From the IMG/VR virus record IMGVR_UViG_3300015241_000003: a stretch of DNA of 60,936 nt, one strand, 5' to 3'. The notes under the pieces are model-generated. The model did no database searches, had not been told where the DNA came from, and saw nothing but the letters and a program-made list of their open reading frames with translations. The DNA comes from a virus. Numbering within the stretch: the stretch's first letter is position 1; the number at the start of each line of letters is the position of its first letter. Position numbers and translations under genes: made by a program. Below are positions 1-60,633 of the stretch, in pieces.

Positions 1-77
1 AGCAACACAGCAATAGCGCCGCTTGGGATACCGCCAACGCCTGTACATGTCAAGGTGGTCGTGTTGCCATTGTTGAC
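1..77. repeat. terminal overlap identical to 60860-60936 (circular closure / assembly overlap)
   Basis: The first and last 77 nt are identical when compared directly. An ORF reads in frame through the junction. Confidence 0.95.
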
Positions 78-6235: not shown

Positions 6236-8833
6236 CTACCAAGCCCCCCTTGCGACACTCTCATATTTTTGCCCTAATACGTCTCCAATCGCTTTTGCAA
6301 GCTTGTCAGCGTTGACATCGCTTCCCTGTACTGAGGCGTTCATGGTGACGTTACCAGTGCCTTTCCCTTGCTGTGCAATCTGAGAAAGCAACCCCACAGC
6401 TTGGGTAAGGAGACCTACGAGCTGGTCACTGCCTTGCGTCTGAGAAGGTGCTGAGCTTGGTGACTGCACAAAAGAAGGTGAGGGCATTGTGATGTTTTGC
6501 ATGAATTGTGCTGTTTTCGCCTCATTCCATACACTGGACCCCTTGGGCAAATTGACCAGCATCTCATTGGCGTGGACGTAAGCTAGACCACCTCCAAAGT
6601 TCTCTATGCCAGAAGCGAAATTTCCTACAGCACCGCCACCACCTCCGGCAGGGGACGGTGTTTTTGTGCCGAGCACACCGCCTGTAGCATCCCTGATAGC
6701 ATTAGATAACGAGTGATACCAGTCGATAGCGGTGGATATCCAATCTATGACATCTGCTAAGCCGTTCACGACATGTGTCATAAAATCAAGAAAACCGTTA
6801 ATAGCAGGCCCAACGACATAATCCAGGACTATTTGCAGCCCCCTAAATGCTCCAGATACAGGCCCTAATACTGAGGCTGCAAGTACTCCCAAGTCACCGA
6901 GCAGGTTGGGCGATATTGAATTCCAGAGATGACCGAGCGCCTGTGTTAGATGATCTGAACTTCCTTTCACGCCGTCCATATGCGGCATAACATCAGTGCT
7001 TAGAATATTGCTTAGAGATTGGAATACAGGAATTATATTAGCCTGTATCCAATTCCACAAAATAATAAGTGGTGGCATCACCTTTGTCTCTATAAAGGTT
7101 TTAAGGTTATCCATTTTTATTCGCACATCTCCCATCTCATCGCCCCACGTCGTGAATATAGGCACTATTTGTGTCTGGATAAATGCCCAAAGCTGCTGTA
7201 ACTTTGGCATGACCTGTGTCTCTATAAATATCTTGAGATCGTTAAACTTGTCTATCACATATATCTTGATATTATTGCCCCATTGCTGCAAAATAGGAAT
7301 GATCTGTGTCTGTATGTAATTCCAGAATCTGATAAGCTTAGGCATCACCTGAGTTTCAATAAACGTTTTTAGAGCATTAAATTTATCTATGACCCATACC
7401 TGTATATTATGCCCCCAAGCCTGCAAAGTAGGCACAACTTGCGTTATGATGTAGTTCCAAAACGTCCTAAGTACAGGAATCACCCTTTGATCTAGGACAT
7501 TGCCGATAAATCCAAGGACATTGCCGATTGCCGCGCCTGCTCCAGAGACGAAATCTTGGAATGCCTTGCTCGATACAGCAGTTGCCAGCCCCTGGAATAG
7601 CCCTTTTACACGATCAACAACAGATCCGGTCTGCACCATGCCGTCTTTTATGCCAAGGAATGAGTCTAGTCCCTCTTTGAGGTAGCCTGACAGCGTTGAC
7701 AAAACACCTGACAAAGAAGCAGACTGCTTAGCCATGCCGCCTTTATAGAGCGGATTCATCTCTATCCCCTTGGTCAAAGCATCGATTGCGACCTTGGCTG
7801 GCAAGGTGCCGTTGCTTGCCATGGCTCGAAGTGCTTCTTTTGTCTTGCCTGTGGCCCTACTCATTGCATCTAGAACATCGATACCATGTGTCTGCATTTG
7901 GCTGATATCACCCCAGGTCATCACGCCTGCCACTTTGATCTTGCCAAGGATATCGACAACAGACTTCATCTCAGCTTCAGAGCCATGTCCTATGCCAAAG
8001 AGCGCATCACCTATGCTGGTCAAATCAGGAATAACATCTTTTGCAGCTATACCCATGCCGATCAACTGAGCTGCATACTGCTGTACAGGCTCAGGCTCGA
8101 ATGGGGTCACGTCTGCAAAGTGATTCAGCTCTTTGATCTCCGCAGCTGCTTGCTTAGCACCACCCATCAGAGTCGTGAAGCTTATTCCTAGTTGCTCAGC
8201 AGAGGCAATAGGGCCAAGCAGGGCACCACCTAGCTGTATAGCGCCCTGGATTAGCCCTTGAACGCCAAGTATAGCCATGCCAGCTTTAGAGGCAAAGTCA
8301 AGAAATCCTCCTCCACTTGATTCAGTCTTTGAGGAGAGTTCACTCATGTGGCTTGTTGTGCTGCTCATCCCTGACGTAAGGCCGCTAAGAGCCCCTTTCG
8401 CCATCTCTATTGCACGTGTGAATATGCTCGTCTTCTCGGAGTCTTCAGTCATTGCAGCAGCGAGGCGCTGGCCTTCTGCCTGTACCTTGTTCATAGCTGT
8501 ACTGAGATTATTTTGAGCTGTCTGGACTTTTTCAGCAGCGAGACCAGCCTTAGCCTGCGCTAGTGCTACCTGCTCAGCAGATGCTTTACCACCAAGCGCG
8601 GCATCCTGAGCTTTCTTGAGAGCGACGGCTGCACTGGCTTGCGCTACTTCAAGTTTCTTGCCAGCTTCAGCAGCCTTTGTCTGAAATGCAGAGAGCTTGT
8701 CAAAGTTCTCGCCAGCTTTTGTGACTTGACCAATCTGGTTTTTGACAGCGTTGAGGCTATTCTCGAAAGCCTTGAGTGTGGCTTGAGAATTGCCAGGGGT
8801 GATATCTAGTTTCCAGATCGTGTCGTCTACCAT
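6236..8833 (-). CDS. tail tape measure protein
   Basis: 865 aa with an Ala/Lys/Gln-rich coiled-coil N-terminus. The TP901-type core reads FADVTPFEPEPVQQYAAQLIGMGI..GDISQMQTHGIDVLDAM. It also has internal W/F-periodic repeats and follows the chaperones. Confidence 0.9.
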   Translation of the reverse strand: MVDDTIWKLDITPGNSQATLKAFENSLNAVKNQIGQVTKAGENFDKLSAFQTKAAEAGKKLEVAQASAAVALKKAQDAALGGKASAEQVALAQAKAGLAAEKVQTAQNNLSTAMNKVQAEGQRLAAAMTEDSEKTSIFTRAIEMAKGALSGLTSGMSSTTSHMSELSSKTESSGGGFLDFASKAGMAILGVQGLIQGAIQLGGALLGPIASAEQLGISFTTLMGGAKQAAAEIKELNHFADVTPFEPEPVQQYAAQLIGMGIAAKDVIPDLTSIGDALFGIGHGSEAEMKSVVDILGKIKVAGVMTWGDISQMQTHGIDVLDAMSRATGKTKEALRAMASNGTLPAKVAIDALTKGIEMNPLYKGGMAKQSASLSGVLSTLSGYLKEGLDSFLGIKDGMVQTGSVVDRVKGLFQGLATAVSSKAFQDFVSGAGAAIGNVLGFIGNVLDQRVIPVLRTFWNYIITQVVPTLQAWGHNIQVWVIDKFNALKTFIETQVMPKLIRFWNYIQTQIIPILQQWGNNIKIYVIDKFNDLKIFIETQVMPKLQQLWAFIQTQIVPIFTTWGDEMGDVRIKMDNLKTFIETKVMPPLIILWNWIQANIIPVFQSLSNILSTDVMPHMDGVKGSSDHLTQALGHLWNSISPNLLGDLGVLAASVLGPVSGAFRGLQIVLDYVVGPAINGFLDFMTHVVNGLADVIDWISTAIDWYHSLSNAIRDATGGVLGTKTPSPAGGGGGAVGNFASGIENFGGGLAYVHANEMLVNLPKGSSVWNEAKTAQFMQNITMPSPSFVQSPSSAPSQTQGSDQLVGLLTQAVGLLSQIAQQGKGTGNVTMNASVQGSDVNADKLAKAIGDVLGQKYESVARGAW
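7013..7483 (-). repeat. in-frame tandem repeat (about 45 aa / 135 nt, about 3.4 copies) inside the tape measure gene
   Basis: Successive protein units are FWNYIITQVVPTLQAWGHNIQVWVIDKFNALKTFIETQVMPKLIR, FWNYIQTQIIPILQQWGNNIKIYVIDKFNDLKIFIETQVMPKLQQ and LWAFIQTQIVPIF... Confidence 0.85.
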
Positions 8834-8841
8834 GTTACCTC

Positions 8842-9072
8842 TTATGCTATGGAATGATCCTCATCTATCCAAACAACTTTGGCGTTATCGTTATAGCAAT
8901 GAATCGCCTGGACACTCAAAATATCTGGATATTGTCTCGTTGTTTTCGTTCCAAGCCAGTAGAGACCGGCTTGACCGCCTTCTTCCCACTCAACACCATG
9001 CGCTATGACTCCTGTACCTGATATACCTGTTATATCTGTATCACGATCTAGAATAAATCTTCTCATATTCAT
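8842..9072 (-). CDS. hypothetical protein (between chaperones and tape measure)
   Basis: 76-aa ORF, co-oriented and tightly packed with its neighbours. Confidence 0.5.
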   Translation of the reverse strand: MNMRRFILDRDTDITGISGTGVIAHGVEWEEGGQAGLYWLGTKTTRQYPDILSVQAIHCYNDNAKVVWIDEDHSIA

Positions 9073-9075
9073 CTC

Positions 9076-9534
9076 CTAAATCAGTTGAATGGTCTCACCT
9101 GTGTACTGCTCCGGTTGTGGGAACTGGTTAAGTACTGCCTGTACTTCACCTTGGTTCTGCTTTTTCTGACTTTCTGTCCCTCCCTCAGCTCTTGCCTTCT
9201 CTTGCAAGATATAGTCGAGCTCACGAACATACCCAAAGAAGCGTCTATAATCTATGCGAGCAAAATCTGCATCAGTAATTGCGCCTCTGTAGTGGTATAA
9301 GACTCGCGCGTACAACTTCATCGGGTCATAAGGCTGTACTTGAGCCTTTGCTCCCTGGCTACCATTAAGCTTTGCTTGTGCGGCCTGTGCTTGTGCTCTA
9401 AGCAGATTTGCAGCGTCTAGATCGCCCTCCTCTTCGCATTCGTGAGCTTGGGCGAGTGCTTTCTTGATCTCTTGCGGTCCCCAATCGCAATTTGGATCTA
9501 CAGGAACAGAATCGACTATGACAGGAGAGCTCAT
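9076..9534 (-). CDS. tail assembly chaperone, frameshift-extension ORF (gpT-like)
   Basis: It lies in the -1 frame relative to 9531-10028. That frame is open from the T8 slippery run at 9597-9604 into this ORF. Confidence 0.7.
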   Translation of the reverse strand: MSSPVIVDSVPVDPNCDWGPQEIKKALAQAHECEEEGDLDAANLLRAQAQAAQAKLNGSQGAKAQVQPYDPMKLYARVLYHYRGAITDADFARIDYRRFFGYVRELDYILQEKARAEGGTESQKKQNQGEVQAVLNQFPQPEQYTGETIQLI

Positions 9535-10028
9535 CCCACGCTTTGCGTTGTACTGGCGTCTGGCGAGGGACTGCTGCTCGATGGGGGGCTCATCCGAAAA
9601 AAAATCTGAGTGAAAATTTCGATAAGATGCAAACCGTCAATTCCCTCCCTGAGCATCTCTTTTGTCATGAAAGGCTCGCTAATCTTCCAGCACTCGAGCA
9701 ACATGTCAGTCATGCTGTCGAGCTGCTCTTTAGTAAGCTTGTTTATCGAAAACCCTGCCTCAACTCCATCAAACATAGCTACAGCCCGAGTGTAAAGGTC
9801 AATCGGCGCAATATTCTTGATCTTGGCAGTTCTGGTACCTGCTACCACACGACCTATGTACTGATTGCCTTTCTCGTCCAGAAAAGGTGTACCGTCATCA
9901 AGAGTGAGAGGCTCATCTTTGTAGATAGAGAGAGGGATATGCATCATCTCTCTCGTGACCTCATCACGATTAACCACCTTTGGCGCTTTCGCCTGCTCAA
10001 ATGATGCTTCTACCGTTCCATTGTTCAT
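9531..10028 (-). CDS. tail assembly chaperone (gpG-like)
   Basis: 165-aa ORF between the major tail and tape measure genes, with a slippery run 60 nt before its stop. Confidence 0.7.
   Translation of the reverse strand: MNNGTVEASFEQAKAPKVVNRDEVTREMMHIPLSIYKDEPLTLDDGTPFLDEKGNQYIGRVVAGTRTAKIKNIAPIDLYTRAVAMFDGVEAGFSINKLTKEQLDSMTDMLLECWKISEPFMTKEMLREGIDGLHLIEIFTQIFFRMSPPSSSSPSPDASTTQSVG
9597..9604 (-). promoter_or_regulatory. programmed -1 ribosomal frameshift slippery site (T8 on the coding strand)
   Basis: The coding strand reads CAG ATT TTT TTT CGG. A -1 slip gives FFSDEPPIEQQSLARRQYNAKRG and then MSSPVIVD of the downstream ORF, with no stop codon. Confidence 0.7.
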
Positions 10029-15265: not shown

Positions 15266-16711
15266 TTATGCAGCCCTCACTCTACCGATTTTGGCCGCGA
15301 ATGCAGGAGCCCTAAGAGCCAAAGACTTATCAGAAGTAAGTGCAAATTGGCGGGTCCTGGCATTGACGACAGCTAGAAGCGTGGTCTGAATCGGGTTGAC
15401 CTCTGGGCAGACCAAGATGTCGGGGTCACGCGGGATGAGGTAGATGTCCTCGGTCACCTGGGTACCTGTCTGCACACGTGGGAAGGTCACGCCATCGCTT
15501 ATAGCATTAGCACCTGAGCTGGCAACAGTCGCCCAATAGAGAGTATTGGTGGTAGCAGGGTTTTGGATCAAGCCAGTGTCTGTGAAGCTTACTACAGCCG
15601 CGTCATTGGTGATGTCATAGGCTGCACATACGGCATACAAGCTCTCAGTGCCACTAGAAGTGCTTCTGAAAATGCGATAGCCGATGATATCAATCACATT
15701 GCCATCCGCGTCTGTGGGAGCTGGTGTCGTCCAGGTCAGGACGACGTTTTTGGCATCAGCGGATGGGGTTTGTGAAGCTTCAGCACTAGCCGCTGTTAGG
15801 CCATATCTCGTTACTGCTTCCATCCTGTAGTAGTAGGTATTTGCAGCTAAGAGGGAGGAGCCAGAGCCAGTGTTACCAGTTGTGCTAATGGTTCCCATAG
15901 TGCCTTGGTTGCCCATGAAGCTAGAAATGATGATAGGGATGTTTCTGTATGACTCGACTTCTACACCTGCATCAATAGCATTGTCAGCTACAGGTGCATT
16001 AGGGTCTCCAAAGTCATCGCGCAAGAACATGCGCTTCATCACTTGATTGTATCGTGCATTCTGGACGTGAAGACCGTTGAGGTATGATTGCATCTTGGGA
16101 GACATCATCCAAAAGTAGTCCATACCAAGCTCTTGAGCATATCGGCCTCTGACAGCATCAATAGCATTGTCCATCATCAGAAATGCGAGCAGCTGGCTAT
16201 TGGCATCAATCTTGTTGGCATTGGCTACCATCAGATCTACGCCGTCCCATTGCGGCCGCTTTGTGTTGAGGGTGGCAGACGCTGAGCCATACATGTGAGT
16301 CGTCTCTTCCAACCATGCCATCGCCTTCGCATGAGCCCCCAGTTCCAAGTCGAACAGGTTCCCATTTGCCCTTGCAACCTGTACTGTGAAGTTACTCAGG
16401 TCACCAACGGATTCAGTATGCTTGATAGGGAATTGTCCCTGAGTGTATGTGCTATTAGAAGCAGCCACCGATCCCGTACCACTGTTAGGAGGTGCTTCTG
16501 TGGTGTGCTGAGGCTGTGGTAAAGCCGTTCGCTTATTGAAGTAAAAGATGTCTGTTTCCCACGTCTGGTGCGGAATGGCTCTCTCAAGTGGTGCCCAGGC
16601 ACGTCGTAGCTCAGTGAGCAGACGATCAATGACTTTTGGCACAAGATTGATTGCGCCGCCTGTTGAGGCCAGTGAGTATGCCTCTCTAATTTCTCTAAGA
16701 GTCGCTGGCAT
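15266..16711 (-). CDS. major capsid protein (HK97-fold) with Fn3-like insertion
   Basis: 481-aa ORF right after the protease/scaffold gene with a GGGAGG RBS. Size and position fit a major capsid protein. Residues about 286-385 look like a fibronectin-III-type insert. Confidence 0.75.
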   Translation of the reverse strand: MPATLREIREAYSLASTGGAINLVPKVIDRLLTELRRAWAPLERAIPHQTWETDIFYFNKRTALPQPQHTTEAPPNSGTGSVAASNSTYTQGQFPIKHTESVGDLSNFTVQVARANGNLFDLELGAHAKAMAWLEETTHMYGSASATLNTKRPQWDGVDLMVANANKIDANSQLLAFLMMDNAIDAVRGRYAQELGMDYFWMMSPKMQSYLNGLHVQNARYNQVMKRMFLRDDFGDPNAPVADNAIDAGVEVESYRNIPIIISSFMGNQGTMGTISTTGNTGSGSSLLAANTYYYRMEAVTRYGLTAASAEASQTPSADAKNVVLTWTTPAPTDADGNVIDIIGYRIFRSTSSGTESLYAVCAAYDITNDAAVVSFTDTGLIQNPATTNTLYWATVASSGANAISDGVTFPRVQTGTQVTEDIYLIPRDPDILVCPEVNPIQTTLLAVVNARTRQFALTSDKSLALRAPAFAAKIGRVRAA

Positions 16712-18052
16712 TTAAACCTCCCCTAAAAATTGCAAGTTGCCATCCAGGCTCTGCTGAGCGTCCATAATCCCCATCAGCTCAACTTCAAATTCTTTGAGTA
16801 TCCATTCGCCATTCATACCCTCAGGAAGTGGCTTTGAGCGGTCAAGAAGATCAAAGCGGGTATTCACATCTCGCAACTGCTCACGCATGTAGTCACCCTT
16901 GCGATAGTATGGCTTCTTGGGCTTCTCTTGCTCATTGGAGCCTTCAACCATGCTCTTTCGCTGGGGAACATAGCGCGGATTCATCTTCTGTTGCATCTCA
17001 GTGAGCTTTGTCTCAAATGAGGTTTGCATCTCAGTGAGCTTGGCATCAAGCTTTTCCTGCATGATCTCATCTTGTGTCTTAGGTGCTGCGACTGTGTAGC
17101 CAGCCTCTTGCAAGAGCTTCAATGCATCCTCAGCAGTCGGCTTTGATGCCTCTTGCTTCTGCTTCTCAGCTTCCTTTTGCTGAGCTTGCTGTTGTTGGGC
17201 GAAAGCCTCTTGCAACTCCTTGAGGAGCTGAGCTTTCTCTTCAGGTGTCATAGGTTGCTCCTTTGTTTCTGGAGGTGCAGACTTATCGCCCGTACTCTCC
17301 TTGCATTCTTTACCAAGAAAAGCGGCTAATCCGCTATGTGCTTTTGTGAGGTATTCTGAAGTCTGAGAACTAAACTTTGCTCCTACCTCAGTAATACCAA
17401 GAAACGTTAGTGCAGTGGAACGCTCCATATCATCAGGAGCACAATCTAAATCCATTGCTTTTGCAAGATAATCATGAGTAGTACTGAGTGATTGTGGGTA
17501 GAGAGCTTCTACTGTTTTTACTTCTTCTATAAGTGCAGTATCTTTAAAAGTGAATATCTCAGTAAGGTCTTGAGGTTCTCTCGATTCGGAGACGTACTCG
17601 ACGCGTGCGTTAGGAATGCCAGGTGAGGAGGTAAAGTCGATGCCAGTCAGGCGAATGTTCTCGCCTCCTACCATTGGGTATGGCTCGTCATTGTCGATGT
17701 ACATCTCAGCATTGACGGCTCGCAAGCTCTGGGATTTGATGTAGCCACCCTTGACCAGTTCCACAACCTCGTGGCCTGCTTGTGTGTCCGGTACATCGAT
17801 GAGAGCAAAAGCTTGCGTGCCTTCCTTGCCGATGGCTGCAATCTTGCCGACAATCTCATTAGTGGCATCCATATATGCAGAGTCGTGTGAGAGGTAGACA
17901 GTGAGAGGTAGCGCGTTAGGGTCGCTGAGCTGTACTTGAGCAGCTTGCACGAGACGATTGACGGTCAGGGCAGGGTACTTCCTGCCATTCAGAGATGTGG
18001 CGTCATCCTCTAGGAAGATAGATTTTACACGAGCTATGCGGTTTTCTACCAT
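16712..18052 (-). CDS. prohead protease (HK97/S78-like) fused to coiled-coil scaffolding region
   Basis: His56 (YLSHD) and Ser107/109 (IKSQSL) are spaced about 50 aa apart, as in HK97 gp4. The C-terminal half is Glu/Lys/Gln-rich coiled coil (EEKAQLLKELQEAFAQQQQAQQKEAEKQKQEA). Confidence 0.5.
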   Translation of the reverse strand: MVENRIARVKSIFLEDDATSLNGRKYPALTVNRLVQAAQVQLSDPNALPLTVYLSHDSAYMDATNEIVGKIAAIGKEGTQAFALIDVPDTQAGHEVVELVKGGYIKSQSLRAVNAEMYIDNDEPYPMVGGENIRLTGIDFTSSPGIPNARVEYVSESREPQDLTEIFTFKDTALIEEVKTVEALYPQSLSTTHDYLAKAMDLDCAPDDMERSTALTFLGITEVGAKFSSQTSEYLTKAHSGLAAFLGKECKESTGDKSAPPETKEQPMTPEEKAQLLKELQEAFAQQQQAQQKEAEKQKQEASKPTAEDALKLLQEAGYTVAAPKTQDEIMQEKLDAKLTEMQTSFETKLTEMQQKMNPRYVPQRKSMVEGSNEQEKPKKPYYRKGDYMREQLRDVNTRFDLLDRSKPLPEGMNGEWILKEFEVELMGIMDAQQSLDGNLQFLGEV

Positions 18053-18063
18053 GGTTACCTCGA

Positions 18064-18101
18064 CAATAAAAAAAGAGCCCTAACCTCGAAAGGTTGGGCT
18101 C
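18064..18101 (-). terminator. intrinsic terminator
   Basis: The minus strand reads GAGCCCAACC-TTTCGA-GGTTAGGGCTC followed by TTTTTTTATTG. Confidence 0.8.
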
Positions 18102-18141
18102 AGGCTCTAAGGGCTCAGGCTCTTGGTTACTTATTCAGTTA

Positions 18142-18257
18142 GGTGAGAGGCTAGGATTTGCACCTAGCATGTGGGATAACCTCGAAGACTCTATCTGCTT
18201 TCGCTTAATCCCTGACGATAGCCCGCTTCTAGCGTCTACCTATTCCGCCACTCTCAC
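18142..18257 (-). ncRNA. aberrant tRNA-Leu-like element (116 nt; possible pseudo-tRNA or tRNA-like ncRNA)
   Basis: GTGAGAG-TG-GCGGAATAGGTAGACGC is a class-II acceptor plus D-arm, and CTAGG-TGCAAAT-CCTAG is a T-arm. CTCTCAC pairs with the 5-prime end. The anticodon arm is replaced by a 46-nt hairpin. Confidence 0.4.
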
Positions 18258-18424
18258 ATAATACGCGCTAGTCGAATCGAACGTCGTCGCCCGCGGATTG
18301 AAGTCCGCCATGCACCTTACACCGAACGCGCTTGCAGCAAAAGGCGTCTGTAGACTTGACACTTTCCTTGCAGGTGCCTGGTGTTCCTGCGTCCTCTTGC
18401 TGAAACTAGTATAGCACGGTATTA

Positions 18425-18607
18425 TCATTTTACGCTAGCCTCTTGCTTGGCTTGCTGCTCATCAAGTAGAGCCCACATCCTACCAATCTCCTCACGTGAA
18501 ATAACATGCTCAGCATTGCATCTACTACACCATAAATGGATACCATCGTGGCTGATGATAGCCAGTCTTCTATGAGTCGTATCGCAATTGATCGCACGTT
18601 TATTCAT
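18425..18607 (-). CDS. hypothetical small Cys/His protein (possible zinc ribbon)
   Basis: 60 aa with NCDTTH and WCSRCN motifs. Confidence 0.5.
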   Translation of the reverse strand: MNKRAINCDTTHRRLAIISHDGIHLWCSRCNAEHVISREEIGRMWALLDEQQAKQEASVK

Positions 18608-18898
18608 TCAAATAGCCCCTCTAAAATCACGATTCATCAATGCCTGCTTCAACACATCCTCGATACTATGAGTACCTGCAAACTTGATTGGAGGCTGGTA
18701 AGGCTTTGCAAGTACGGTCACGCAAGCGCCTCCCGAGATAGGCATGAGACACACACTCACCAGTTCCACAGGACCGCCTACCTCCTCAAGAAGATTATTG
18801 CATCCTTGTGCTATGGCAGTGTTGATGCCTTCTGCTTCTTGGCCTGCTACGAGGCCTACGGTTACAGTGGTGTAGAGCATCACGCCCTGCCTCTCCAT
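18608..18898 (-). CDS. hypothetical protein
   Basis: 96-aa ORF. An alternative ATG at 18880 would abut the upstream stop. Confidence 0.45.
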   Translation of the reverse strand: MERQGVMLYTTVTVGLVAGQEAEGINTAIAQGCNNLLEEVGGPVELVSVCLMPISGGACVTVLAKPYQPPIKFAGTHSIEDVLKQALMNRDFRGAI

Positions 18899-19080
18899 TC
18901 CTTGCTCATCCTTGCCTGACTTTTTTGCTTGCGAGGCTTAGGATATCGATATTGCTTAGCATAGGTATTCAGTCCGCCCTCTGTAATATTGACTTTAATG
19001 TGCTCAGATCCCACGTTTATTGATGTCCACTGAATAGGCGTTGTGTGATCAATAATGATAAATTGCGACATTTCATTCAT
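18880..19080 (-). CDS. hypothetical protein
   Basis: 66-aa ORF overlapping the portal stop by a few nt. Confidence 0.45.
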   Translation of the reverse strand: MNEMSQFIIIDHTTPIQWTSINVGSEHIKVNITEGGLNTYAKQYRYPKPRKQKSQARMSKEWRGRA

Positions 19081-21238
19081 CCTCCACTAGCGAATATGCA
19101 TACCGCTCGTCTCCAATCGCCAGCCATAGCAGGTCAAAGTCGAGATCAATAGCAGGAACGCTATTGATCGGCATAGGATCAGTAGCAGGGATGTATGAGA
19201 GCGTGATATGGGCCGTATAGCCATGTGTTGCATCAGGAGAGAAGCCAGCCACTTGCAAGGTTTGCACCAGATCTTGACGCCACTCAGGAAGCCCAGGCGC
19301 ATCTACAGAAGCATAGACAGGTGTAGGCTCACCATCGGGTACAGAAGTGAAACGGCCTATTCCTGATACTCTCGCCTTCAGAGCAAAAGCATTCTCGGCA
19401 TAGGTTTGCACTGCTTTCTTGAGTGCATCTATGTTCCCTAGTTGGCTCTTGTCTCCCAGGAATGCCAGTGTGCAATGCAGCTCGTCAATCGGCTCACCAG
19501 TGTCTAAGACTAACGCTTGGGACTCGCTAGGTTTCAGAAAGAATGCAACCATAACGCCAGTGTTGTTAGCCTCGGCCAGATCCTCTTTGAGCCATTGAAG
19601 AAGCTCTATTCCCATTGGTGGCGTACTGAGGATAGATAGAGCCTCTTTCTGCTTATTGTTCTGGGCCAAAAGTATCTTGGGATCATACTCTTCTGGCATA
19701 AAACGAAAACGCATATTATCCTCTTTCTTAGGAGGTTGCTTGTCCTCCGGTGGTTGGTTCCCATCTTTGCCCTGGTTATCAGGATTGCCTTGCCCTTGCT
19801 GCATAGCCTGCTGAGCTCCTTGCAATGAGAGCTGAGCTTGCTGATTTTGCTCGTCCTCTAGGGTCTGCATCCGTGCTACTGGAGTGATGACGTTGCCAGT
19901 GGTGATAGTAGGGACATCGCCGCCGGGTACATCGCCTTTCCCGCGTTCCTGCCGTGCTTCATTTCTGGTCAGCGTGCCATTGCCAATAGAGGTATTTTCG
20001 ATTGAGGCAATGTCCTTGTCATCCCTATAATCTGCATGACGCGTTTGTACTCTCCAATCAGGCACATTCAAACCCGTCTTTACTGCTCTATAATTCAGCT
20101 TCTCAAGTATCCTGTTCTCTAGTGGGATAACCTTATTGTAGATAAATGATTTATTCTGGCTCTCACCCGTTCCACCACCTATATTGCCACTTTCGATAAT
20201 GCCGAGCATAGCAGGTGGTACGCCGTACACAACAAGGGCTCTATCACGCTGCTTATCCTGACTCTTATCGAAGTCCATCTCGATAGAGCCCTTGCCGAAC
20301 TCTTTCAGCTCACCACCACCATACATCACAGGAGGCTTGTGAGCGTTCTGTATGCCTGTGTAGTTCTCTTCATACCATTTGAGGTAACGCGTTCCATCCT
20401 CCTCTTCAGATTCAGGCCCCATTGATACCCAATAACTAGGCTTGCCACCTTGCCTGAAGAACTTCTCTCCCCACGTGACCATGCTCCGATCTAAGAACAC
20501 CGGGTCCTTGAGCTTCTCGATAGGCGAGAGGGCTTTCTTCTTGGCACGCGGGTCTGGTAGCCACCATCTGATAATCTCGCGAGGTTCAAAGTCAACCGTC
20601 TCTGTATTCTTCTCTAAACGCTGAGTATAGCCTGTGATGACACCGTGCCTATCAAATCGTGTATTCATGGTGAGAGAGTCGATAGTGTAGAGGTTGCGTA
20701 CAAGCCCATCGGGACCATACACCATCTCGCAAAAGGCTTCACCAAAGATAAGCATGTCTGTAGCAATGGAGTTGAAAAACTGCAAGAAGTCTTCTTCTAC
20801 ATCCTCAAATGCGAATAACGCTTTGACCTTCGCCTCGTTGGTAGCATTCCCCTTGCCCTGCTCTATCTCAACCGTCTCCCATCCTCCTGAGATCATGCGC
20901 TCAGCAGTCGTATCTACACACCCTGATACCCATTGGTTTCCGCAGTAGACCTGATAATAGGTATCCTTCTTCTGCCGCTCGTCCAGGAAGCCTTCTTTCG
21001 TCTGCACACTGCCTAGACCTAGCGATGTATCATCCCATGCCATGCTGAGGTTCTTAGGACCTTTTGCTGGTAGAGCTTTCATTGGGCGCTTTGATGCTTC
21101 TTCCAAGCTAATAATGTTGCGCTCATACATCTCTGAAGTGTGAGAATTGCTATCAAATTTGGGGATATCGTAGGGACGTTCCATCACACGGGAGCGCCGT
21201 TTGCGCGTGCGTATCCAGTTGGGAAAGCTTATCGCCAT
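19073..21238 (-). CDS. portal protein with C-terminal 2H phosphoesterase (LigT/2',5'-phosphodiesterase-like) domain
   Basis: 721-aa ORF downstream of the large terminase with a GAGGTGA RBS. A Q/P-rich linker precedes a C-terminal domain. That domain carries two H-x-T-L motifs, HCTL (codon 19475-19477) and HITL (19208-19210). Confidence 0.7.
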   Translation of the reverse strand: MAISFPNWIRTRKRRSRVMERPYDIPKFDSNSHTSEMYERNIISLEEASKRPMKALPAKGPKNLSMAWDDTSLGLGSVQTKEGFLDERQKKDTYYQVYCGNQWVSGCVDTTAERMISGGWETVEIEQGKGNATNEAKVKALFAFEDVEEDFLQFFNSIATDMLIFGEAFCEMVYGPDGLVRNLYTIDSLTMNTRFDRHGVITGYTQRLEKNTETVDFEPREIIRWWLPDPRAKKKALSPIEKLKDPVFLDRSMVTWGEKFFRQGGKPSYWVSMGPESEEEDGTRYLKWYEENYTGIQNAHKPPVMYGGGELKEFGKGSIEMDFDKSQDKQRDRALVVYGVPPAMLGIIESGNIGGGTGESQNKSFIYNKVIPLENRILEKLNYRAVKTGLNVPDWRVQTRHADYRDDKDIASIENTSIGNGTLTRNEARQERGKGDVPGGDVPTITTGNVITPVARMQTLEDEQNQQAQLSLQGAQQAMQQGQGNPDNQGKDGNQPPEDKQPPKKEDNMRFRFMPEEYDPKILLAQNNKQKEALSILSTPPMGIELLQWLKEDLAEANNTGVMVAFFLKPSESQALVLDTGEPIDELHCTLAFLGDKSQLGNIDALKKAVQTYAENAFALKARVSGIGRFTSVPDGEPTPVYASVDAPGLPEWRQDLVQTLQVAGFSPDATHGYTAHITLSYIPATDPMPINSVPAIDLDFDLLWLAIGDERYAYSLVEDE

Positions 21239-21246
21239 GTATCACC

Positions 21247-21690
21247 TCATTCCGTACTAGATAGCAGGTCTCTAGCCTGATGATATGCCTTATCAATAAC
21301 CTTTTGCATTTCTTTCTCTCTATCAGACATTGGCGTATCTGATGTTGGCAAAAACTTCTGATTGCACATACAGTTCAATAAGTGCTCAAAGAGTCCCCTG
21401 TCTATAGTGATATCTTTACTTGCGCCGCTTTTATACGCCTCAATGATAGGCAAGATATGAGCAACCTCGTCCCTGTCAGATTGTTTTTCCTGCTCTGATA
21501 GCTCTTTATAGGGAGTCCGTATCTGTCTCTCCCATCGGTCTAGTGACTCTTTAGGAATACAGAGATGGCTATGACCATCAGTGCCTTCTACCGCCTCACA
21601 CTCTCCAATGAGGTGGGCCATCCATCCTGACCATCCATCATGTTCTTTGTCGGCTAATTGCTCTATAAGCTCTTTTTCGCTCATCTCCAT
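21247..21690 (-). CDS. hypothetical protein with RyR-like domain
   Basis: LADKEHDGWSGWM ... TPYKELSEQEKQSDRDEV matches the RyR-domain pattern (HE.W..GW...PY.eLsE.EK..dRd). Confidence 0.45.
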   Translation of the reverse strand: MEMSEKELIEQLADKEHDGWSGWMAHLIGECEAVEGTDGHSHLCIPKESLDRWERQIRTPYKELSEQEKQSDRDEVAHILPIIEAYKSGASKDITIDRGLFEHLLNCMCNQKFLPTSDTPMSDREKEMQKVIDKAYHQARDLLSSTE

Positions 21691-23111
21691 GCTAGTTCAT
21701 CCTCCTCTTCATACAATTGTCTCTCTTGCTCCTCTTCAGTTGGCTTGTGGACGACCATACCGCCTACTGCATTGTTACCTGTCATCAGCTCAGTAAATGC
21801 CCACACATTCGCGTCTAGACGATCTGGAGACCTTTCACCAGGACACCAATTGCACTGCTGGTCTTCGGTATCTGGAAACACGCCCACGTGATGGATAAGG
21901 GCACGCTGGTAGAGATCTGAGATAGGCTCAGCTCGTAACTGTTTCCCGCGTGTCGCTCTCACTGCCTTAAACTTGATATTCCCTAGCTTCTTTTCCTTGG
22001 CAATATTGCGAACTATTGTACCTACCATCTCACCTCCATTATTGACCTCACCAACGATACAATCAGCTTGAAATATATCGTATGCCTTCACCGCTGCGCT
22101 TGCCCATTCGTTCGGAGTGCCTATCATCGAATAGTCTGCAAGCATGTAACCCTGATTGTCGACCCCCAGACCTGCTACGATGATACCAGCCTCCGCAGGA
22201 TCTTCGCTCGTTTCCAAGCTCGCAGCAGGCGGGTCCACTGCTACCACAATGCGCTTTAGCTCAGGGCATTCCCGTACCCTGTTATCATCTATCCAATCCC
22301 GCTTCCAGAGAGCCCCATCAATATCATCTACAACCTCCCCATCTATCTCTTGCTTGCCTAAACGTGTCCCTTTATATTTTCTATCTATTTCATGAATAAA
22401 ACGCTTTGAGAGATTATCACTATTATCATATGTTGAGCCTTTTGTTACAATGGTGTTAGGCTCTTTCAGCAAGGCTTTCATGGCCTTCGTGTTGCGCGGG
22501 GTGGTCGTCACCACACATTGCGGTTGCACGCCTGGAGCTGGGTCAATACGAAGCCCAAACATGAGTTGATCCCAAGAATCATCGTACTGCCAAGCTGCTC
22601 GCTCATCTGCCCATGCAAAGGAGTGCTGTGGCCCTCTTAGCTGGTCTGGCTGGTCTGCGCTATAGGTTGTGGCATAAGAGCCGTTGGGCCATGTGATCCG
22701 TCGCTGCGATGGGACATATTCCGGTTGAAACCATATCGGCGAGATAGGCATAATACCGGATCTGCCATTCACCATCACATTGCGGACATCGGCAACGGTA
22801 CGGCCCACGAGTGCTATGTGGCACCCTGGATATTCGAGTGCCTTTTCGATGACCCACTCGGCACCCGTCCTGGTCTTTCCCCAACCTCTACCAGCTCTCA
22901 CAACCCAAGTAGACCAGTTACCCGGCGGCGTTAATTGATTGTCCCTTGCCCACGCTTTCCAGGTGTATTTAAGTGTTAAAGCCCGTTCAGGTGGTGATTT
23001 TTTAATGTACTCATACTTTCGCTTCCTTGACCATTGGGCAAATTCACGAAAGAGCCTGAACTCTTGCTCAGGTGTGATGTCAGCTTTGGTTAGTTTTTTC
23101 TTGACCTTCAT
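21681..23111 (-). CDS. terL: terminase large subunit
   Basis: 476 aa with Walker A AGRGWGKTRTGAEW, a nuclease-type C-terminal half, and a position after the small terminase. Confidence 0.9.
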   Translation of the reverse strand: MKVKKKLTKADITPEQEFRLFREFAQWSRKRKYEYIKKSPPERALTLKYTWKAWARDNQLTPPGNWSTWVVRAGRGWGKTRTGAEWVIEKALEYPGCHIALVGRTVADVRNVMVNGRSGIMPISPIWFQPEYVPSQRRITWPNGSYATTYSADQPDQLRGPQHSFAWADERAAWQYDDSWDQLMFGLRIDPAPGVQPQCVVTTTPRNTKAMKALLKEPNTIVTKGSTYDNSDNLSKRFIHEIDRKYKGTRLGKQEIDGEVVDDIDGALWKRDWIDDNRVRECPELKRIVVAVDPPAASLETSEDPAEAGIIVAGLGVDNQGYMLADYSMIGTPNEWASAAVKAYDIFQADCIVGEVNNGGEMVGTIVRNIAKEKKLGNIKFKAVRATRGKQLRAEPISDLYQRALIHHVGVFPDTEDQQCNWCPGERSPDRLDANVWAFTELMTGNNAVGGMVVHKPTEEEQERQLYEEEDELAWR

Positions 23112-23685
23112 CCTTCGCTGACTCTTCTTCTGCTGACGATACTAGATCATTTAATAGCTCGTTCTTAGCATTCGTTGCCATTGCATTGATTTCATTGAAG
23201 ATATTGATTTCAGGCTGTTTATCTTTGTATTCTGGAAGATTAGCTTTTGCCCATCCGAGCTGTAGAGATGTATCCCACTTGTGAATGTAGACCACATCAC
23301 CACGTTGCATGATCTGACGGCCCTGATCGTCAAGCTTCTGATCGCCATTTTCGTCAAGCACCGGAGTGTACTCATAGACGACTCGGTTCATGCTCAAGGC
23401 TATCTCTTTCCATCCATAGGCAGCTCGTTGGAAGATAGCGCTACGGATGATATCCTTGGCACGCTCTATCGATGCATCCCAATCTTTCGCGAATTGCTCG
23501 TCTGCCTCACGCCACTCATACGCAGTTTTGCGAGATATGTTAGCCACATCACAGGCCAAAGACACATTTGGATCCTTGCAGAGAGAAGCAATAAACAATG
23601 CTTTCGCCTCTTTACGCTCTTGGGCGTTCATAGGACCCTTGCGCGTAATAGGTGTCACCTTGTTAACTTTGTGCTCATTGTCCAT
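23080..23685 (-). CDS. terS: terminase small subunit (HTH-containing)
   Basis: 201 aa immediately upstream of and overlapping terL. The N-terminal HTH reads NVSLACDVANISRKTAYEWREADEQF. Confidence 0.6.
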   Translation of the reverse strand: MDNEHKVNKVTPITRKGPMNAQERKEAKALFIASLCKDPNVSLACDVANISRKTAYEWREADEQFAKDWDASIERAKDIIRSAIFQRAAYGWKEIALSMNRVVYEYTPVLDENGDQKLDDQGRQIMQRGDVVYIHKWDTSLQLGWAKANLPEYKDKQPEINIFNEINAMATNAKNELLNDLVSSAEEESAKDEGQEKTNQS

Positions 23686-24166: not shown

Positions 24167-24298
24167 GCATGCCCTTTGTGAGTCATCCTGTGAGCATGAA
24201 AATGGACTCCTCGGGGTTGCAATAGATGCAAAAGTGTGAGAGGAGTCCTTCCGTTAAGGTTTGTGTATTGGATCGTGTTTACAGATCTGACGCCAGTA

Positions 24299-24371
24299 TA
24301 GCACATACCAGATTTGAACTGGTGACTTTCTGCCTGAGAAGCAGACGGCCTAACCACTAGCCTAATGTGCC
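24299..24371 (-). tRNA. tRNA-Glu (anticodon CUC)
   Basis: 73-nt cloverleaf folded by hand. Acceptor is GGCACAT/ATGTGCT with G1-U72. The D-arm is GGCT/GGCC and the anticodon arm is TCTGC-TTCTCAG-GCAGA. The T-arm is ACCAG-TTCAAAT-CTGGT, position 73 is A, and no CCA is encoded. Confidence 0.85.
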
Positions 24372-24376
24372 ATGAA

Positions 24377-24449
24377 TAGCGCATAGCAGACTCGAACTGC
24401 TAATCTCTACATTGAAAGTGTAGTGGCTTAACCATTCGCCCAATGCGCC
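24377..24449 (-). tRNA. tRNA-Glu (anticodon UUC)
   Basis: 73-nt cloverleaf. Acceptor is GGCGCAT/ATGCGCT with G1-U72. The anticodon arm is CTACA-CTTTCAA-TGTAG and the T-arm is AGCAG-TTCGAGT-CTGCT. Position 73 is A and no CCA is encoded. Confidence 0.85.
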
Positions 24450-32536: not shown

Positions 32537-32763
32537 GGTCGCTTGTCCTTTATCATTTGTAGGTACTCTAAATACTGTTGTTTAAGGTCAGCGTAGATCT
32601 TACGCTTCTCCTCTTCATCAGTAATGCCTGCTATGTGCTTTCTTCCTTCAAGCCATACTTTCGCCCTTCCAGCAGCGTCAAGGTCTTCTAAGTTGTATCG
32701 CCTGTATTCTTCTTTATAATCTATGTGGCCCTTAATGAAGATGTTCTCTTGTTCGTTGGTCAT
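32533..32763 (-). CDS. hypothetical protein
   Basis: 76-aa charged ORF with translationally coupled overlaps. Confidence 0.5.
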   Translation of the reverse strand: MTNEQENIFIKGHIDYKEEYRRYNLEDLDAAGRAKVWLEGRKHIAGITDEEEKRKIYADLKQQYLEYLQMIKDKRP

Positions 32764-33650
32764 ATCAGTCTTCCTTCCTGTTTGCGTCGTGGGTCATTCT
32801 CTGGCTTCCAGCTTCTATAATAGACAATGCCACTAATACCGCCTTCGCTATAACCATACATTTTCCCAATCTCTCGAAGCGACATTTGCTTACTTGCATA
32901 AAGTCTTCGTATTTCATCGACTTGTTCCCATGTAATCCTTGCATTCGGATGATTTTCACCTCTAAGGTGTTTAATCTCTATTCCTTGCTCTGCTCTTATC
33001 TTGCATCTATGGGAACAATAATCTCTGCTTAAGGGGCTAAACTCAAGACGGTGAAAATCTGTACCACAAGCTTTGCAGGTATAACTTACTCGCTTTCCAT
33101 ACTCCCTTTTCTCTTGGGGCGCTATGATTGGCCTTTTCACTCTAAGGGAATACTCACGATCAATAGCAATAGCCAAGCGCTTAGCTGTCATTGGCATTTT
33201 TGCATCTTCCAACTCACACAATACTTTTCTTGTTTCTGGGGCATAATTCCCCCATCTCTCCAGATCATTGAGCCCATATCTAGGGGTATACCTGTAAGCG
33301 TTAAAGCACCTCTTGCTGCAAAAATATTTTGTACCAATCTTTGGTTGACTGATAGGCTTTCCGCACCTTTTACAATTCGATCTAGTTCTACTCTCTTGAT
33401 AAGATGTATCTACTTCCCCTACGCGGTAATATCTAGTCCAGCAGAGATTTTTATTATCACAAAAATCCCTTCTGCACCTATCGCCTTGAGCTAAGGGTTT
33501 GCCACAAGCTTTGCAAAAGCCCCTTCCAATTTTTCGACATTCAATGCTGCAAAAGTCCTTATATCTCCCGTACCTCTCTTTGATATCTGGCAAAGCCCCT
33601 CCGCATGCAGCGCACTCTGCTGGTAATTCGTAAGACTTGCTCGTGTTCAT
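32760..33650 (-). CDS. multi-zinc-ribbon (FCS/TRASH-like repeats) protein with C-terminal HTH
   Basis: Repeated C-x2-C ... (F/Y)CSxxC units (FCSIEC, FCSKRC, YCSHRC). The C-terminal NARITWEQVDEIRRLYASKQMSLREIGKMYGYSEGGISGIVYYRSW is HTH-like. Confidence 0.55.
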   Translation of the reverse strand: MNTSKSYELPAECAACGGALPDIKERYGRYKDFCSIECRKIGRGFCKACGKPLAQGDRCRRDFCDNKNLCWTRYYRVGEVDTSYQESRTRSNCKRCGKPISQPKIGTKYFCSKRCFNAYRYTPRYGLNDLERWGNYAPETRKVLCELEDAKMPMTAKRLAIAIDREYSLRVKRPIIAPQEKREYGKRVSYTCKACGTDFHRLEFSPLSRDYCSHRCKIRAEQGIEIKHLRGENHPNARITWEQVDEIRRLYASKQMSLREIGKMYGYSEGGISGIVYYRSWKPENDPRRKQEGRLI

Positions 33651-35224: not shown

Positions 35225-36007
35225 ATGCACGGTCTGATTTTTGCGACCTGGGAGAAGTTCTTGTCAGAAAGGTACGGCACACCGATACTAGAGGAGTATA
35301 GAGCGTCTATAGCAGATACAGATGCAAAGTGGGCATTGACATCTCGCATGTATGACGACTCGATACTGATTAGGGGAGTAGAGACTACCAGTAGGAAGAC
35401 TGGTATCTTTGCCACGACGCTGCTCCGAGAGTACGGGCGTTACTTTCTGAACAACAATCTGACCAACCACCTATGCGCCTATTTGCTCAGCAGAGCGACA
35501 TCTGCCAAGGATTTGCTCATGCAGATACGCGGTCCACTCTTCACCTTCACGGCGTACTCAGACGGCTCTCAGCGACTCCTGTTGCAGTATGATAGCAATC
35601 GCTTCCTGTGCTCTCTGATGGTTGGATGCATTGAAGGTGCTGCTGATCGCTTCAAAGAGAGCGTGAGGGTCCAGGAGCTGTCCTGTATGCGGTTCGGTGC
35701 TCCGCTGTGTTTGATGGATGTGAGGTTTGAGAGGAATACGGAATCGCTTGAGGACTTGAGTGTGCTGAACAGGCAAAGCGAGTTGAGATGGATAGCTGAT
35801 GAGGTGCTGAAGCTGCTACCACCGGCTGGTGGTTACACGTTGCCTCAGATAGAAATGCTGCTGAGGGCGCATCCAGGGATACCGGTAGAGCAGGTGCGCA
35901 GGAGTGCGACCTACAATGCGGTGACACACTTGCAGCATGCGGGGCTTGTGGCGAGTAGTGCTGACATTGGGGACCTGCTACAGACGAGAAGGTATAGGCG
36001 GGTGTGA
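35225..36007 (+). CDS. H-NOX (HNOB)-like sensor domain fused to C-terminal winged-helix domain
   Basis: AGGAGG RBS. The N-terminus MHGLIFATWEKFLSERYG and a Y-x-S-x-R motif (YDSNR, 35588-35602) followed by LMVGCIEGAADRF fit H-NOX. The C-terminal YTLPQIEMLLRAH..ATYNAVTHLQHAGLV is wHTH-like. Confidence 0.65.
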   Translation: MHGLIFATWEKFLSERYGTPILEEYRASIADTDAKWALTSRMYDDSILIRGVETTSRKTGIFATTLLREYGRYFLNNNLTNHLCAYLLSRATSAKDLLMQIRGPLFTFTAYSDGSQRLLLQYDSNRFLCSLMVGCIEGAADRFKESVRVQELSCMRFGAPLCLMDVRFERNTESLEDLSVLNRQSELRWIADEVLKLLPPAGGYTLPQIEMLLRAHPGIPVEQVRRSATYNAVTHLQHAGLVASSADIGDLLQTRRYRRV

Positions 36008-37268: not shown

Positions 37269-38027
37269 TTATCCAATCGTTCTAATTGTCCAGAAATCGC
37301 TCGCCAGCCCTTTATTCATGAGATACTCGTAAGGTATTTCAAAGTAGCCAGTGCCATTGATACCCCATCCTGTACCCCAACTATTGCGACAAATGAACCT
37401 CTGTACGTCATCCTTATAGCCACAACATAAAACCGCGTGGCCACCCAAAACCTGCTCGTCTGGCCCGGGCATAGGCACAATTCCCCTACCAGCCACGTCC
37501 TGACTTTCAAAGCTGCTATAGACAGTAAACCCATAGACAAAGGGATAACCGCTCGCCAGACACGCTTTCATCTGTGTAAGGTTGCGAGTCACTCGCTGGT
37601 AGCTCACAGCCTTGTCTAGCTGGGCTTGCTGGTAGCAAAGGGCAGACGGCCTGGTCGTGAATTGCGAGATGTCGTAGGGCCATTCTGGTTCGCTACAGGC
37701 CCCTTGCTTATTCACGCTCTTGATGCCATCACGGATCATCGCCCCGGAGTCGCTGCTAACTGTATGCTCCATGACGCGCTCATTGAAGTAGATAAATAAC
37801 CTGGAAGGTGTGAAGTCTGGCAGCCCCTGTTTCACCCGATCAAACTCAATAGCCCCTGCAATGGCATTGGCTGTGCAGCTCCCCAGATTGCCTTGGTCAT
37901 ACACAGGCGGACACCCGGGCCTCAGATCTGCACTCGGCGGTAAAGCTGCGATGTGCTCAAGTGGTGCTGAGTACATATGGTCGCGTGTATCCGGTAAGTC
38001 GGGTATCCATCCTAATTTATGAGTCAT
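37269..38027 (-). CDS. papain-like cysteine peptidase (family C1)
   Basis: Catalytic signatures YDQGNLGSCTANA (Gln/Cys), GGHAVLCCGY (His) and CRNSWGTGWGINGTGYF (Asn-Ser-Trp). No signal peptide or long propeptide is apparent. Confidence 0.9.
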   Translation of the reverse strand: MTHKLGWIPDLPDTRDHMYSAPLEHIAALPPSADLRPGCPPVYDQGNLGSCTANAIAGAIEFDRVKQGLPDFTPSRLFIYFNERVMEHTVSSDSGAMIRDGIKSVNKQGACSEPEWPYDISQFTTRPSALCYQQAQLDKAVSYQRVTRNLTQMKACLASGYPFVYGFTVYSSFESQDVAGRGIVPMPGPDEQVLGGHAVLCCGYKDDVQRFICRNSWGTGWGINGTGYFEIPYEYLMNKGLASDFWTIRTIG

Positions 38028-60308: not shown

Positions 60309-60633
60309 CACGCCTCGGATGCTACCCGTATCGATGGTTAGAACATCGGTACAGCATTGCGAGGCAAAACCATATTCAAATTTACCTCTACATTTTATCA
60401 TAAACCCGCCTGTAGAGCAAGTTTATCCACTATTAGGTACCTACAAATTGCGGTGTCATATGCCTCCCTCTTGTGCAAGTTACTTTCACCCTTCTCGCAC
60501 GTTCTAAGCGTAGAAAGGTAAAATCATATGTTTCAATATGTCAAAGTTGCTCTAAAAGCACTCTTCATCGCTGCTATGCTCCTTATCGCTGTATTAGTGC
60601 TCTATATCCTTTGCTTTGTTGTCTGGTATGGAC

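Follow-up and report, generated by a model that had tools for sequence, protein, structure and literature searches.

Why a phage portal protein should end in an enzyme, and what that enzyme might do, is the question raised by one gene of IMG/VR virus record IMGVR_UViG_3300015241_000003, a stretch of 60,936 nucleotides that was analysed over its whole length and is referred to below as the window. The gene occupies 19073..21238 on the minus strand, has an ATG start in the open reading frame (ORF) list and a TGA stop codon, and is a complete portal-2H fusion gene of 721 amino acids (aa), in which a portal core, a tether, and a C-terminal 2H phosphoesterase domain are contained in one uninterrupted ORF. 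A Shine-Dalgarno-like motif (GAGGTGA) is located 5 nt upstream of the start codon, and the identical 721-aa protein is on record as P0257 for this contig, a JGI metagenome contig that the window comprises in full. A first-pass annotation, made from the letters of the window, had described a portal protein with a C-terminal 2H domain behind a low-complexity linker, encoded by one gene, and the Pfam, PHROGs, AlphaFold2 (AF2), and Foldseek analyses concur with that description. The Q/P-rich linker and all of the strings that it had quoted (VMVAFFLKP, ELHCTLAFLGD, FALKARVSGIGRF, and YTAHITLSY) are present in the protein.

The portal core (residues ~85-480; 19799..20986, minus strand) closes in a long helix formed by residues 454-480 and was recognized by Pfam, PHROGs, AF2, and Foldseek. 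Phage_portal (PF04860) matched residues 104-432 with an E-value of 3.6e-37 (128.7 bits against a cutoff of 39.1 bits), and the portal families phrog_2662 and phrog_12 were matched at ~1e-46. Because TIGR01537, the portal_HK97 equivalog, scored 82 bits, which is under its cutoff of 112 bits, the core is classed from its profile matches as a divergent member of the HK97-type portals. It was predicted confidently in the full-length AF2 model, and its Foldseek matches were the portals of phage 812, HK97 (8fql and 8cez, with TMt values of 0.68-0.69), the gene transfer agent (GTA), and T5. The predicted template modelling score (pTM) of the full-length model was 0.49, and the portal and 2H domains are therefore predicted to have no fixed docking. 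A DNA-level search with the portal-2H gene against 50,697 phage records gave zero matches; no record covering at least 80% of the full-length protein was obtained by tblastn, and no cultured portal-2H twin was found.

The folded C-terminal domain (residues 560-721; 19076..19561, minus strand) was assigned to the LigT/ThpR-like 2H phosphoesterases by Pfam, PHROG, NCBIfam, AF2, Foldseek, and a profile search of the Protein Data Bank (PDB). The first-pass annotation had placed the domain at 19076-19651, and this interval does correspond exactly to residues 530-721; the fold itself begins only at about residue 560 (TGVMVAFF), and residues 530-559 belong to the tether. The two catalytic motifs, H588-C-T590-L (19466..19477) and H677-I-T679-L (19199..19210), both on the minus strand and verified at the codon level, align with the first and second HxT motifs, respectively, of the Deinococcus radiodurans cyclic phosphodiesterase (CPDase; 5h7e). 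Both histidines stand where they had been placed in the first annotation, the motifs are 89 residues apart, and H-x-[TS] is found just three times in the entire protein.

When the 192-aa segment formed by residues 530-721 was searched in isolation, both Pfam 2H models scored above their gathering thresholds, in line with the family membership proposed at first (2_5_RNA_ligase2, PF13563, 29.1 vs 27 bits; LigT_PEase, PF02834, 27.6 vs 23.3 bits); in the full-length protein the same models gave 25.6 and 22.5 bits, respectively, both slightly under threshold. The isolated segment also matched phrog_14859 (1.6e-25) and TIGR02258, the model for RNA 2',3'-cyclic phosphodiesterase (E=2.8e-9), which scored 37.1 bits with the isolated segment and 33.8 bits with the full-length protein and did not reach the equivalog cutoff of 65.7 bits. 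An AF2 model of the domain, built with 28 homologues as input, had a predicted local distance difference test score (pLDDT) of 90.2 and a pTM of 0.81 and showed a repeated strand-helix-strand pattern, in agreement with the two-lobed alpha+beta fold of the 2H superfamily; within the full-length model, the folded 2H part comprises residues 560-716 with a pLDDT of ~93-96. Foldseek returned 57 PDB matches at E<=0.001, and all 50 that were listed are 2H enzymes with a probability of 1.00. The LigT/ThpR-type cyclic phosphodiesterases 5h7e, 1iuh, 5ldm, and 1vdx came first, and the lower matches included the phosphodiesterases (PDEs) of Rotavirus VP3, an avian poxvirus (acting on cGAMP), and a Burkholderia phage, together with Usb1, AKAP18, and Acb1. 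No paper was found on the Burkholderia phage BCSR5 phosphodiesterase (PDB 9q2y).

A profile built from 28 sequences likewise retrieved archaeal and bacterial LigT proteins from the PDB, with PH0099 at 1.5e-7; Acb1 chains were absent from this search at E<=10. Pfam Acb1 (PF23474) had no match to the protein at E<=1, and in the Foldseek comparison Acb1 was placed at rank 38 (E=1.9e-4, TMq 0.43). Because LigT proteins top both the structure and profile searches and Acb1 has no Pfam or profile match, the sequence and model comparisons place the domain in the LigT/ThpR-like branch of the 2H phosphoesterases, as neither a member of the Acb1 family nor a ThpR equivalog. The list of 2H families given in the first annotation was right: Acb1 is an enzyme of the 2H fold that has an HxT/HxT tetrad (PMC9117128), and the same fold is found in viral 2',5'-PDEs (PMC11410667).

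The portal core and the 2H domain are joined by a tether rich in Q, N, P, K, and E (residues 481-559; 19562..19798, minus strand), which was delimited by AF2 pLDDT, by low conservation, and by a break in DNA homology. In the full-length model, residues 481-515 have a pLDDT of 35-41 and are predicted to be disordered, and two low-confidence helices follow. Tether identity to fused relatives is 12-49% for most of them, in gap-rich alignments. By comparison, the 2H domain is conserved among the fused relatives as strongly as the portal core (80 vs 88% identity, for 2H and core, in P0002; 52 vs 45% in P0021). In an alignment of 28 sequences reaching down to 31% identity, H588, T590, and H677 never vary, and T679 is retained in at least 90% of the sequences. 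Since the catalytic tetrad is thus almost unchanged and the domain is as conserved as the core, the 2H active site appears to be under selection.

A continuous portal-2H reading frame was found in 30 of 106 portal homologues from independent metagenomes; these 30 fused proteins have 40-100% identity. The survey of databases that the first-pass annotation had suggested thus shows portal-2H fusions to be common, and the assembly frameshift that it had considered as a possible source of the fusion is not borne out. Because the same fusion recurs in 30 of 106 homologues, the comparison excludes a frameshift or assembly artefact and supports a real fusion.

The same set of 106 homologues reveals how variable the end of the portal is. 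While 51 proteins end soon after the core, 11 end directly after a 2H domain, as does the protein in the window; 19 have a 2H domain followed by further sequence, and 25 have other extensions. Almost all of the extra segments (43 of 49) are homologous to one another and fall into a single cluster, whose H-x-x-C-x-C motif is characteristic of the MuF end, and the resulting forms are portal-MuF, portal-2H-MuF, and portal-MuF-2H. A hidden Markov model of this MuF-like tail, derived from the relatives, gave no match at E<=10 when the window was translated in all six frames; the portal-2H protein has no MuF match in Pfam, and no second 2H domain was found in the window. In P0016, the same portal slot is occupied by an ADPrib_exo_Tox domain (E=1.5e-24), and the locus of P0016 (L003) contains a separate 2H-MuF-like gene of 369 aa, the 2H domain of which is 57% identical to that in the window. 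The segment 1182-6250 of L003 carries several effector candidates, namely a P-loop kinase-like gene (AAA_33/zeta toxin), the portal-ADP-ribosyltransferase, a second ADP-ribosyltransferase gene, and the 2H gene with its MuF-like Cys/His tail.

Exchange at this slot can be followed at the DNA level in L002, the closest relative that lacks the 2H domain. The portal core and the major capsid protein of L002 are each ~84% identical to those in the window, and DNA homology between the two ends at 19832, i.e. at the end of the portal core, and restarts at 18044 in the protease gene. Within the interval 18044-19832, which has no DNA homology in L002, the tether and the 2H domain are accompanied by three small candidate ORFs (66, 96, and 60 aa; 18425..19080, minus strand; no Pfam or PHROG matches). 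Because homology stops and resumes at these two points, these elements are together interpreted as one variable island. In place of the island, L002 has ~2.5 kb (7416-9904) that includes an Endonuclease VII gene. A 371-aa 'gene' that follows the portal in L002 looks like a spurious hydrophobic ORF and has no 2H domain. Taken together, these sequence comparisons indicate that the C-terminal slot of the portal is exchangeable among close relatives, in which it is empty or holds a 2H, ADP-ribosyltransferase, or MuF-like segment.

The 2H domain belongs to a large clade that is specific to phages. A word-indexed search with the C-terminal domain alone added just three further proteins; an exhaustive profile search, which covered 1.84 billion cluster representatives, returned 6,331 proteins at E<=1e-3, of which 4,100 were at <=1e-10 and 1,360 at <=1e-30. 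The best 150 matches are 176-1,457 aa long, and the 2H domain is located at nearly any position within them. The portal clade of the window is present in 26 of these 150. Among 71 others of the best 150 that were scanned with Pfam, Phage_portal was found in 20, Portal_Mu in two, a prohead protease (Peptidase_S78_2, Mu-like_Pro, or S77) in seven, and an ADP-ribosyltransferase in two, in addition to single cases of ParB, histidine phosphatase, zeta toxin, and RyR. Portal fusions thus account for about half of the best-scoring clade members examined. Acb1 (PF23474) gave weak matches in just three of the 71 (best, 1.3e-4).

Phage records were matched in 196 cases with the 192-aa query and in 75 cases with the 162-aa folded core. 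In cultured actinophages, the 2H gene either directly follows the portal and protease genes, as in Arthrobacter phage Shrooms, or lies inside giant proteins of the MuF-type or 'head maturation protease' class, as in Streptomyces phage Geonosis (gene 11) and Gordonia phage Dexdert (gp18). As judged from these domain compositions and gene positions, the clade is systematically tied to procapsid-internal proteins, i.e. portal, MuF, and prohead protease. GenBank and RefSeq records give the 2H proteins of actinophage head modules (e.g. L001, 5857-6975) labels that do not agree with one another, namely 'RNA ligase', 'aldolase class I', 'capsid maturation protease', 'head maturation protease', 'portal protein', and 'hypothetical protein'; of these, 'RNA ligase' and 'aldolase' probably mislead.

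What the enzyme might do can be approached from its position. On balance, the best reading is that of a virion-carried, pre-made 2H phosphodiesterase that would be delivered with the DNA and would hydrolyse defence signals, and we hold it with moderate confidence. A pre-made, virion-carried effector is favoured because the clade is attached to head-internal carriers and because the portal slot is exchangeable. The portal would form a dodecamer of the HK97 type, in which a flexible tether of ~80 residues would follow the last core helix of each subunit and lead to a 2H domain that is predicted to be catalytically competent. The C-terminal crown of solved portals points towards the lumen of the capsid, and from this we infer that the 2H extension lies in the lumen as well; each head would contain up to 12 copies of the enzyme as built-in parts, beside the DNA exit channel. 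Released from the tether, probably by proteolysis, the domain would enter the host with the DNA and might hydrolyse 2',3'-cyclic, 2'-5', or 3'-5' phosphodiesters through metal-independent His/Thr acid-base catalysis. Foremost among the candidate substrates would be cyclic or linear oligonucleotide defence signals, such as those of the antiphage signalling system based on cyclic oligonucleotides (CBASS) and of type III clustered regularly interspaced short palindromic repeats (CRISPR) systems. The candidate for processing of the tether is a putative prohead protease/scaffold protein of 446 aa (16712..18052, minus strand), which matched the head maturation protease family phrog_207 at 1.8e-6.

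Several points weigh against delivery of a released enzyme. A domain that is still covalently bound to the portal cannot exit the capsid, and no crisp, conserved prohead-protease site was found at the portal-2H junction: the pattern [LIVMF]-x-E, with 45 occurrences in 117 junctions vs 21 in 106 control windows, does not amount to a defined motif, and acidic residues are only diffusely enriched between positions -3 and -6. The assignment of the protease is itself weak (Peptidase_S77, E=1.6e-3, 18.4 bits, under the 27-bit cutoff), and a search of the PDB with the 446-aa ORF gave coiled-coil noise only (NAP1) and no protease structure; its identification as a prohead protease/scaffold is thus tentative. 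Furthermore, the nearest relatives of the 2H domain in sequence and structure are generic 2',3'-cyclic phosphodiesterases and not Acb1, twelve molecules per cell would be a small dose, and no experimental work on the packaging, cleavage, ejection, or substrate of portal- or MuF-fused 2H domains was found in the literature.

The affinity to LigT-type enzymes also bears on a second possibility, in which the domain would heal RNA ends, i.e. would act as a 2',3'-cyclic phosphodiesterase on RNAs (e.g. tRNAs) cut by metal-independent host nucleases and would either ready the ends or block RtcB-type religation. The best matches are of the LigT/ThpR type (5h7e, 1iuh, E. coli LigT, and PH0099), and TIGR02258 points in the same direction. 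In L003, the P-loop kinase-like gene adjoins the portal, and single clade members are fused to a zeta-toxin-type P-loop domain and to a histidine phosphatase. Kinase-like neighbours recall the healing module of fungal and plant tRNA ligase, in which a kinase and a CPDase are combined. Moreover, 2H enzymes take part in phage RNA repair (PMC9503650). However, no RNA ligase, polynucleotide kinase, or Tpt1/KptA was detected by Pfam or PHROG in the 30 ORFs of the window that were scanned, several of which have no assignment, and 2H domains in polyvalent, portal, or MuF contexts were never found with RNA ligases (PMC5512222). A role in RNA-end healing is considered unlikely.

It is also conceivable that the enzyme is not injected and instead works late, in the producer cell, where it would destroy, at the assembling head, the nucleotide signals that arise once procapsid components are sensed by the host, and its presence in the virion would be incidental. 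The fusion partners of the clade (portal, prohead protease/scaffold, and MuF) are late assembly proteins, and the failure to find a clear release cleavage site at the junction is easily accommodated. Mutations that escape CBASS map to the prohead protease/scaffold, the major capsid protein, and the tail fibre, and expression of the protease scaffold domain sets off CBASS-dependent toxicity (bioRxiv 10.1101/2023.05.21.541620); a similar alternative was raised for head-linked ADP-ribosyltransferases (PMC9503650). On the other hand, a freely diffusing enzyme such as Acb1 would suffice for this purpose, without a structural tie of 12 copies, and both the analogy to T4 Alt and to MuF effectors and the presence of an ADP-ribosyltransferase in the same slot favour delivery, so that a purely late function seems unlikely. 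The two modes could be combined, in that the domain would quench cyclic-oligonucleotide second messengers on the assembling procapsid, near the CBASS-linked proteins, late in one infection, and the same 12 copies could be carried over to dampen signalling as the next one begins; the portal C-terminus would then be a swappable docking site of general use for anti-immunity functions (2H, ADP-ribosyltransferase, or MuF-linked modules), with a late and an early role. We offer this combination as a speculative and rather improbable extension; if true, it would represent the first structural-protein-anchored anti-CBASS or anti-cyclic oligoadenylate (cOA) nuclease.

A third activity to be weighed is that of a host shut-off RNase, in which the delivered domain would be a Usb1-like exo- or endoribonuclease acting on host RNAs. 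An RNase function is one of two options given in PMC5512222, by analogy with the fusions of PBECR RNases to MuF or portal, and the Usb1 structures 6pfq, 5v1m, and 4h7w are among the Foldseek matches. These, however, rank below LigT and the viral PDEs with 7-13% identity, and neither Pfam nor the PDB profile search gave a sequence-level Usb1 signal, which makes this activity very unlikely. The idea that a frameshift joined two genes or that the 2H module is a decaying remnant, which could appeal to the relatives that encode 2H as a separate gene (the 369-aa gene of L003 and the Arthrobacter phages), is effectively refuted by the continuous ORF here and in 30 independent homologues and by a catalytic tetrad that hardly varies and a 2H domain that is conserved like the portal core. 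The delivery of a pre-made enzyme against defence signals remains the preferred reading.

The gene is embedded in a head module with the order small terminase, large terminase, 147-aa ORF, portal-2H, small ORFs, protease/scaffold, and major capsid protein. The small terminase is located at 23080-23685 and the large terminase at 21681..23111 (minus strand; Terminase_6N, 6.4e-21, and Terminase_6C, 9.5e-8, in Pfam), for which the best identity to a cultured phage is 48.5%. The 147-aa ORF between terminase and portal (21247..21690, minus strand) has a weak Pfam match to RyR (E=1.2e-4, 22.7 bits, under the cutoff of 27.4 bits); a RyR domain is also fused to one protein of the same 2H clade. The content of this position is variable, with a 98-aa ORF in L002 and ORFs of 64, 136, and 180 aa in L003. 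The major head protein (15266..16711, minus strand) matched phrog_752 at 1.1e-13 and is 84% identical to its L002 homologue.

The first and last 77 bases of the window (1-77 and 60860-60936) are identical and constitute a direct repeat; this indicates that the assembly is circularly closed and that the phage genome, of ~60,859 bp, is probably complete. Elsewhere in this genome, a 260-aa ORF (35225-36007, plus strand) clearly matched H-NOX, a haem-NO/oxygen-binding domain (Pfam HNOB, E=3.1e-17), with a weak V4R match and no PHROG family; such a gas-sensor domain is unusual for a phage genome. A 252-aa ORF (37269-38027, minus strand) encodes a papain-family Peptidase_C1 (E=2.9e-13; phrog_16701, 'peptidase'). 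Two adjoining tRNA-Glu genes with the anticodons CTC and TTC (24298-24449), a DUF5131 protein (44177-44968, E=1.6e-86), a homing endonuclease (phrog_314; 59409-60401), and an HNH endonuclease (32760-33650) were also identified, all on the minus strand. Neither Pfam nor PHROG gave a match for three ORFs of 319-387 aa (48390-49496, 50393-51556, and 52327-53286), and seven of 10 ORFs that were rescanned against Pfam remained without any match.

The destruction of nucleotide immune signals by phages is an active research topic. To our knowledge, all characterised phage enzymes that degrade such signals (e.g. Acb1 and Apyc1) are free cytoplasmic proteins made after infection has started. If capsids were preloaded with a signal-degrading or RNA-end-processing enzyme, that enzyme would be at work ahead of all phage gene expression. 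The census shows the portal-2H design to be widespread in uncultured phages, and cultured phages of Gordonia, Arthrobacter, and Microbacterium, in which members of this 2H clade are part of MuF/protease giants, would be tractable test systems.

Among the known systems with which the protein can be compared, the cellular LigT/ThpR enzymes (5h7e of D. radiodurans, 1iuh of T. thermophilus, 5ldm of E. coli, and 1vdx, PH0099 of P. horikoshii) are the nearest in fold. They are ~165-185 aa long, and both of their HxT motifs align with those of the 2H domain in the window, with identities of 14-20% and TM-scores of ~0.55-0.6; they are free-standing, whereas the 2H domain studied here hangs by its tether on a protein of the virion. 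Viruses of many kinds employ LigT-like PDEs (PMC11410667), and the phage 2H enzyme Acb1 defeats CBASS (Hobbs et al. 2022; PMC9117128). Acb1 of T4 and FBB1 is phage-encoded and shares with the present domain the 2H fold, the HxT/HxT tetrad, and, as predicted for the latter, metal-independent chemistry, but it is a free protein of 152 aa that is not linked to the virion and belongs to a different family.

With respect to architecture, T4 Alt, the MuF-ADP-ribosyltransferases, and the MuF polymorphic toxins follow the same logic of a head-internal carrier with an exchangeable C-terminal enzyme. The MuF polymorphic toxins consist of an N-terminal MuF domain and a variable C-terminal toxin, whereas the protein in the window has no MuF domain, and no immunity-gene partner was identified for it; the description of these toxins by Jamet et al. 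(2017; PMC5576092) makes no mention of 2H or LigT domains. The 2H proteins of actinophage head modules (phrog_14859 and phrog_18402; Shrooms gp18, Dexdert gp18, and Geonosis gene 11) belong to the same clade with ~29-35% identity, but they follow the portal and protease genes or are part of MuF/protease giants, and unlike the 2H domain in the window they are not on the portal itself.

The closest precedents are the portal- and MuF-fused 2H domains of Iyer and colleagues. In 2017, phage 2H domains fused to MuF or portal were proposed to act as RNases or to degrade 2'-5' oligoadenylate or other defence nucleotides (PMC5512222), and in 2022 such fusions were taken to suggest packaging in the head and injection against SMODS (CBASS), cyclic-mononucleotide, and CRISPR signalling (PMC9503650). 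The window has the same architecture, i.e. a 2H domain on the portal in a terminase-portal head module without an RNA ligase, and the proposed role is also the same, i.e. a packaged and injected enzyme that would degrade 2'-5' oligoadenylate or cyclic (oligo)nucleotides or would act as an RNase. The proposals of the first-pass annotation, namely about 12 copies per capsid, delivery together with the DNA, and an enzyme that would attack cyclic or 2',5'-linked signals or tRNA ends, are reasonable and agree with these published predictions, but the idea is not new. Polyvalent proteins are defined by 2-15 domains, and the protein described here, with a portal and one effector, stands at the simplest edge of that range; portal-2H-MuF-like and longer forms occur among its relatives. 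Since the architecture and the hypothesis of a packaged, injected, and degrading enzyme were already published in 2017 and 2022, the novelty of the portal-2H protein is limited, and the window holds a further example of a common design. To those computational surveys, it adds a probably complete uncultured phage genome of ~60.9 kb with the minimal type of fusion, and the present analysis contributes the census figures, the finding that the slot is exchanged between close relatives, the placement of the domain with LigT and not with Acb1, and the late-acting alternative.

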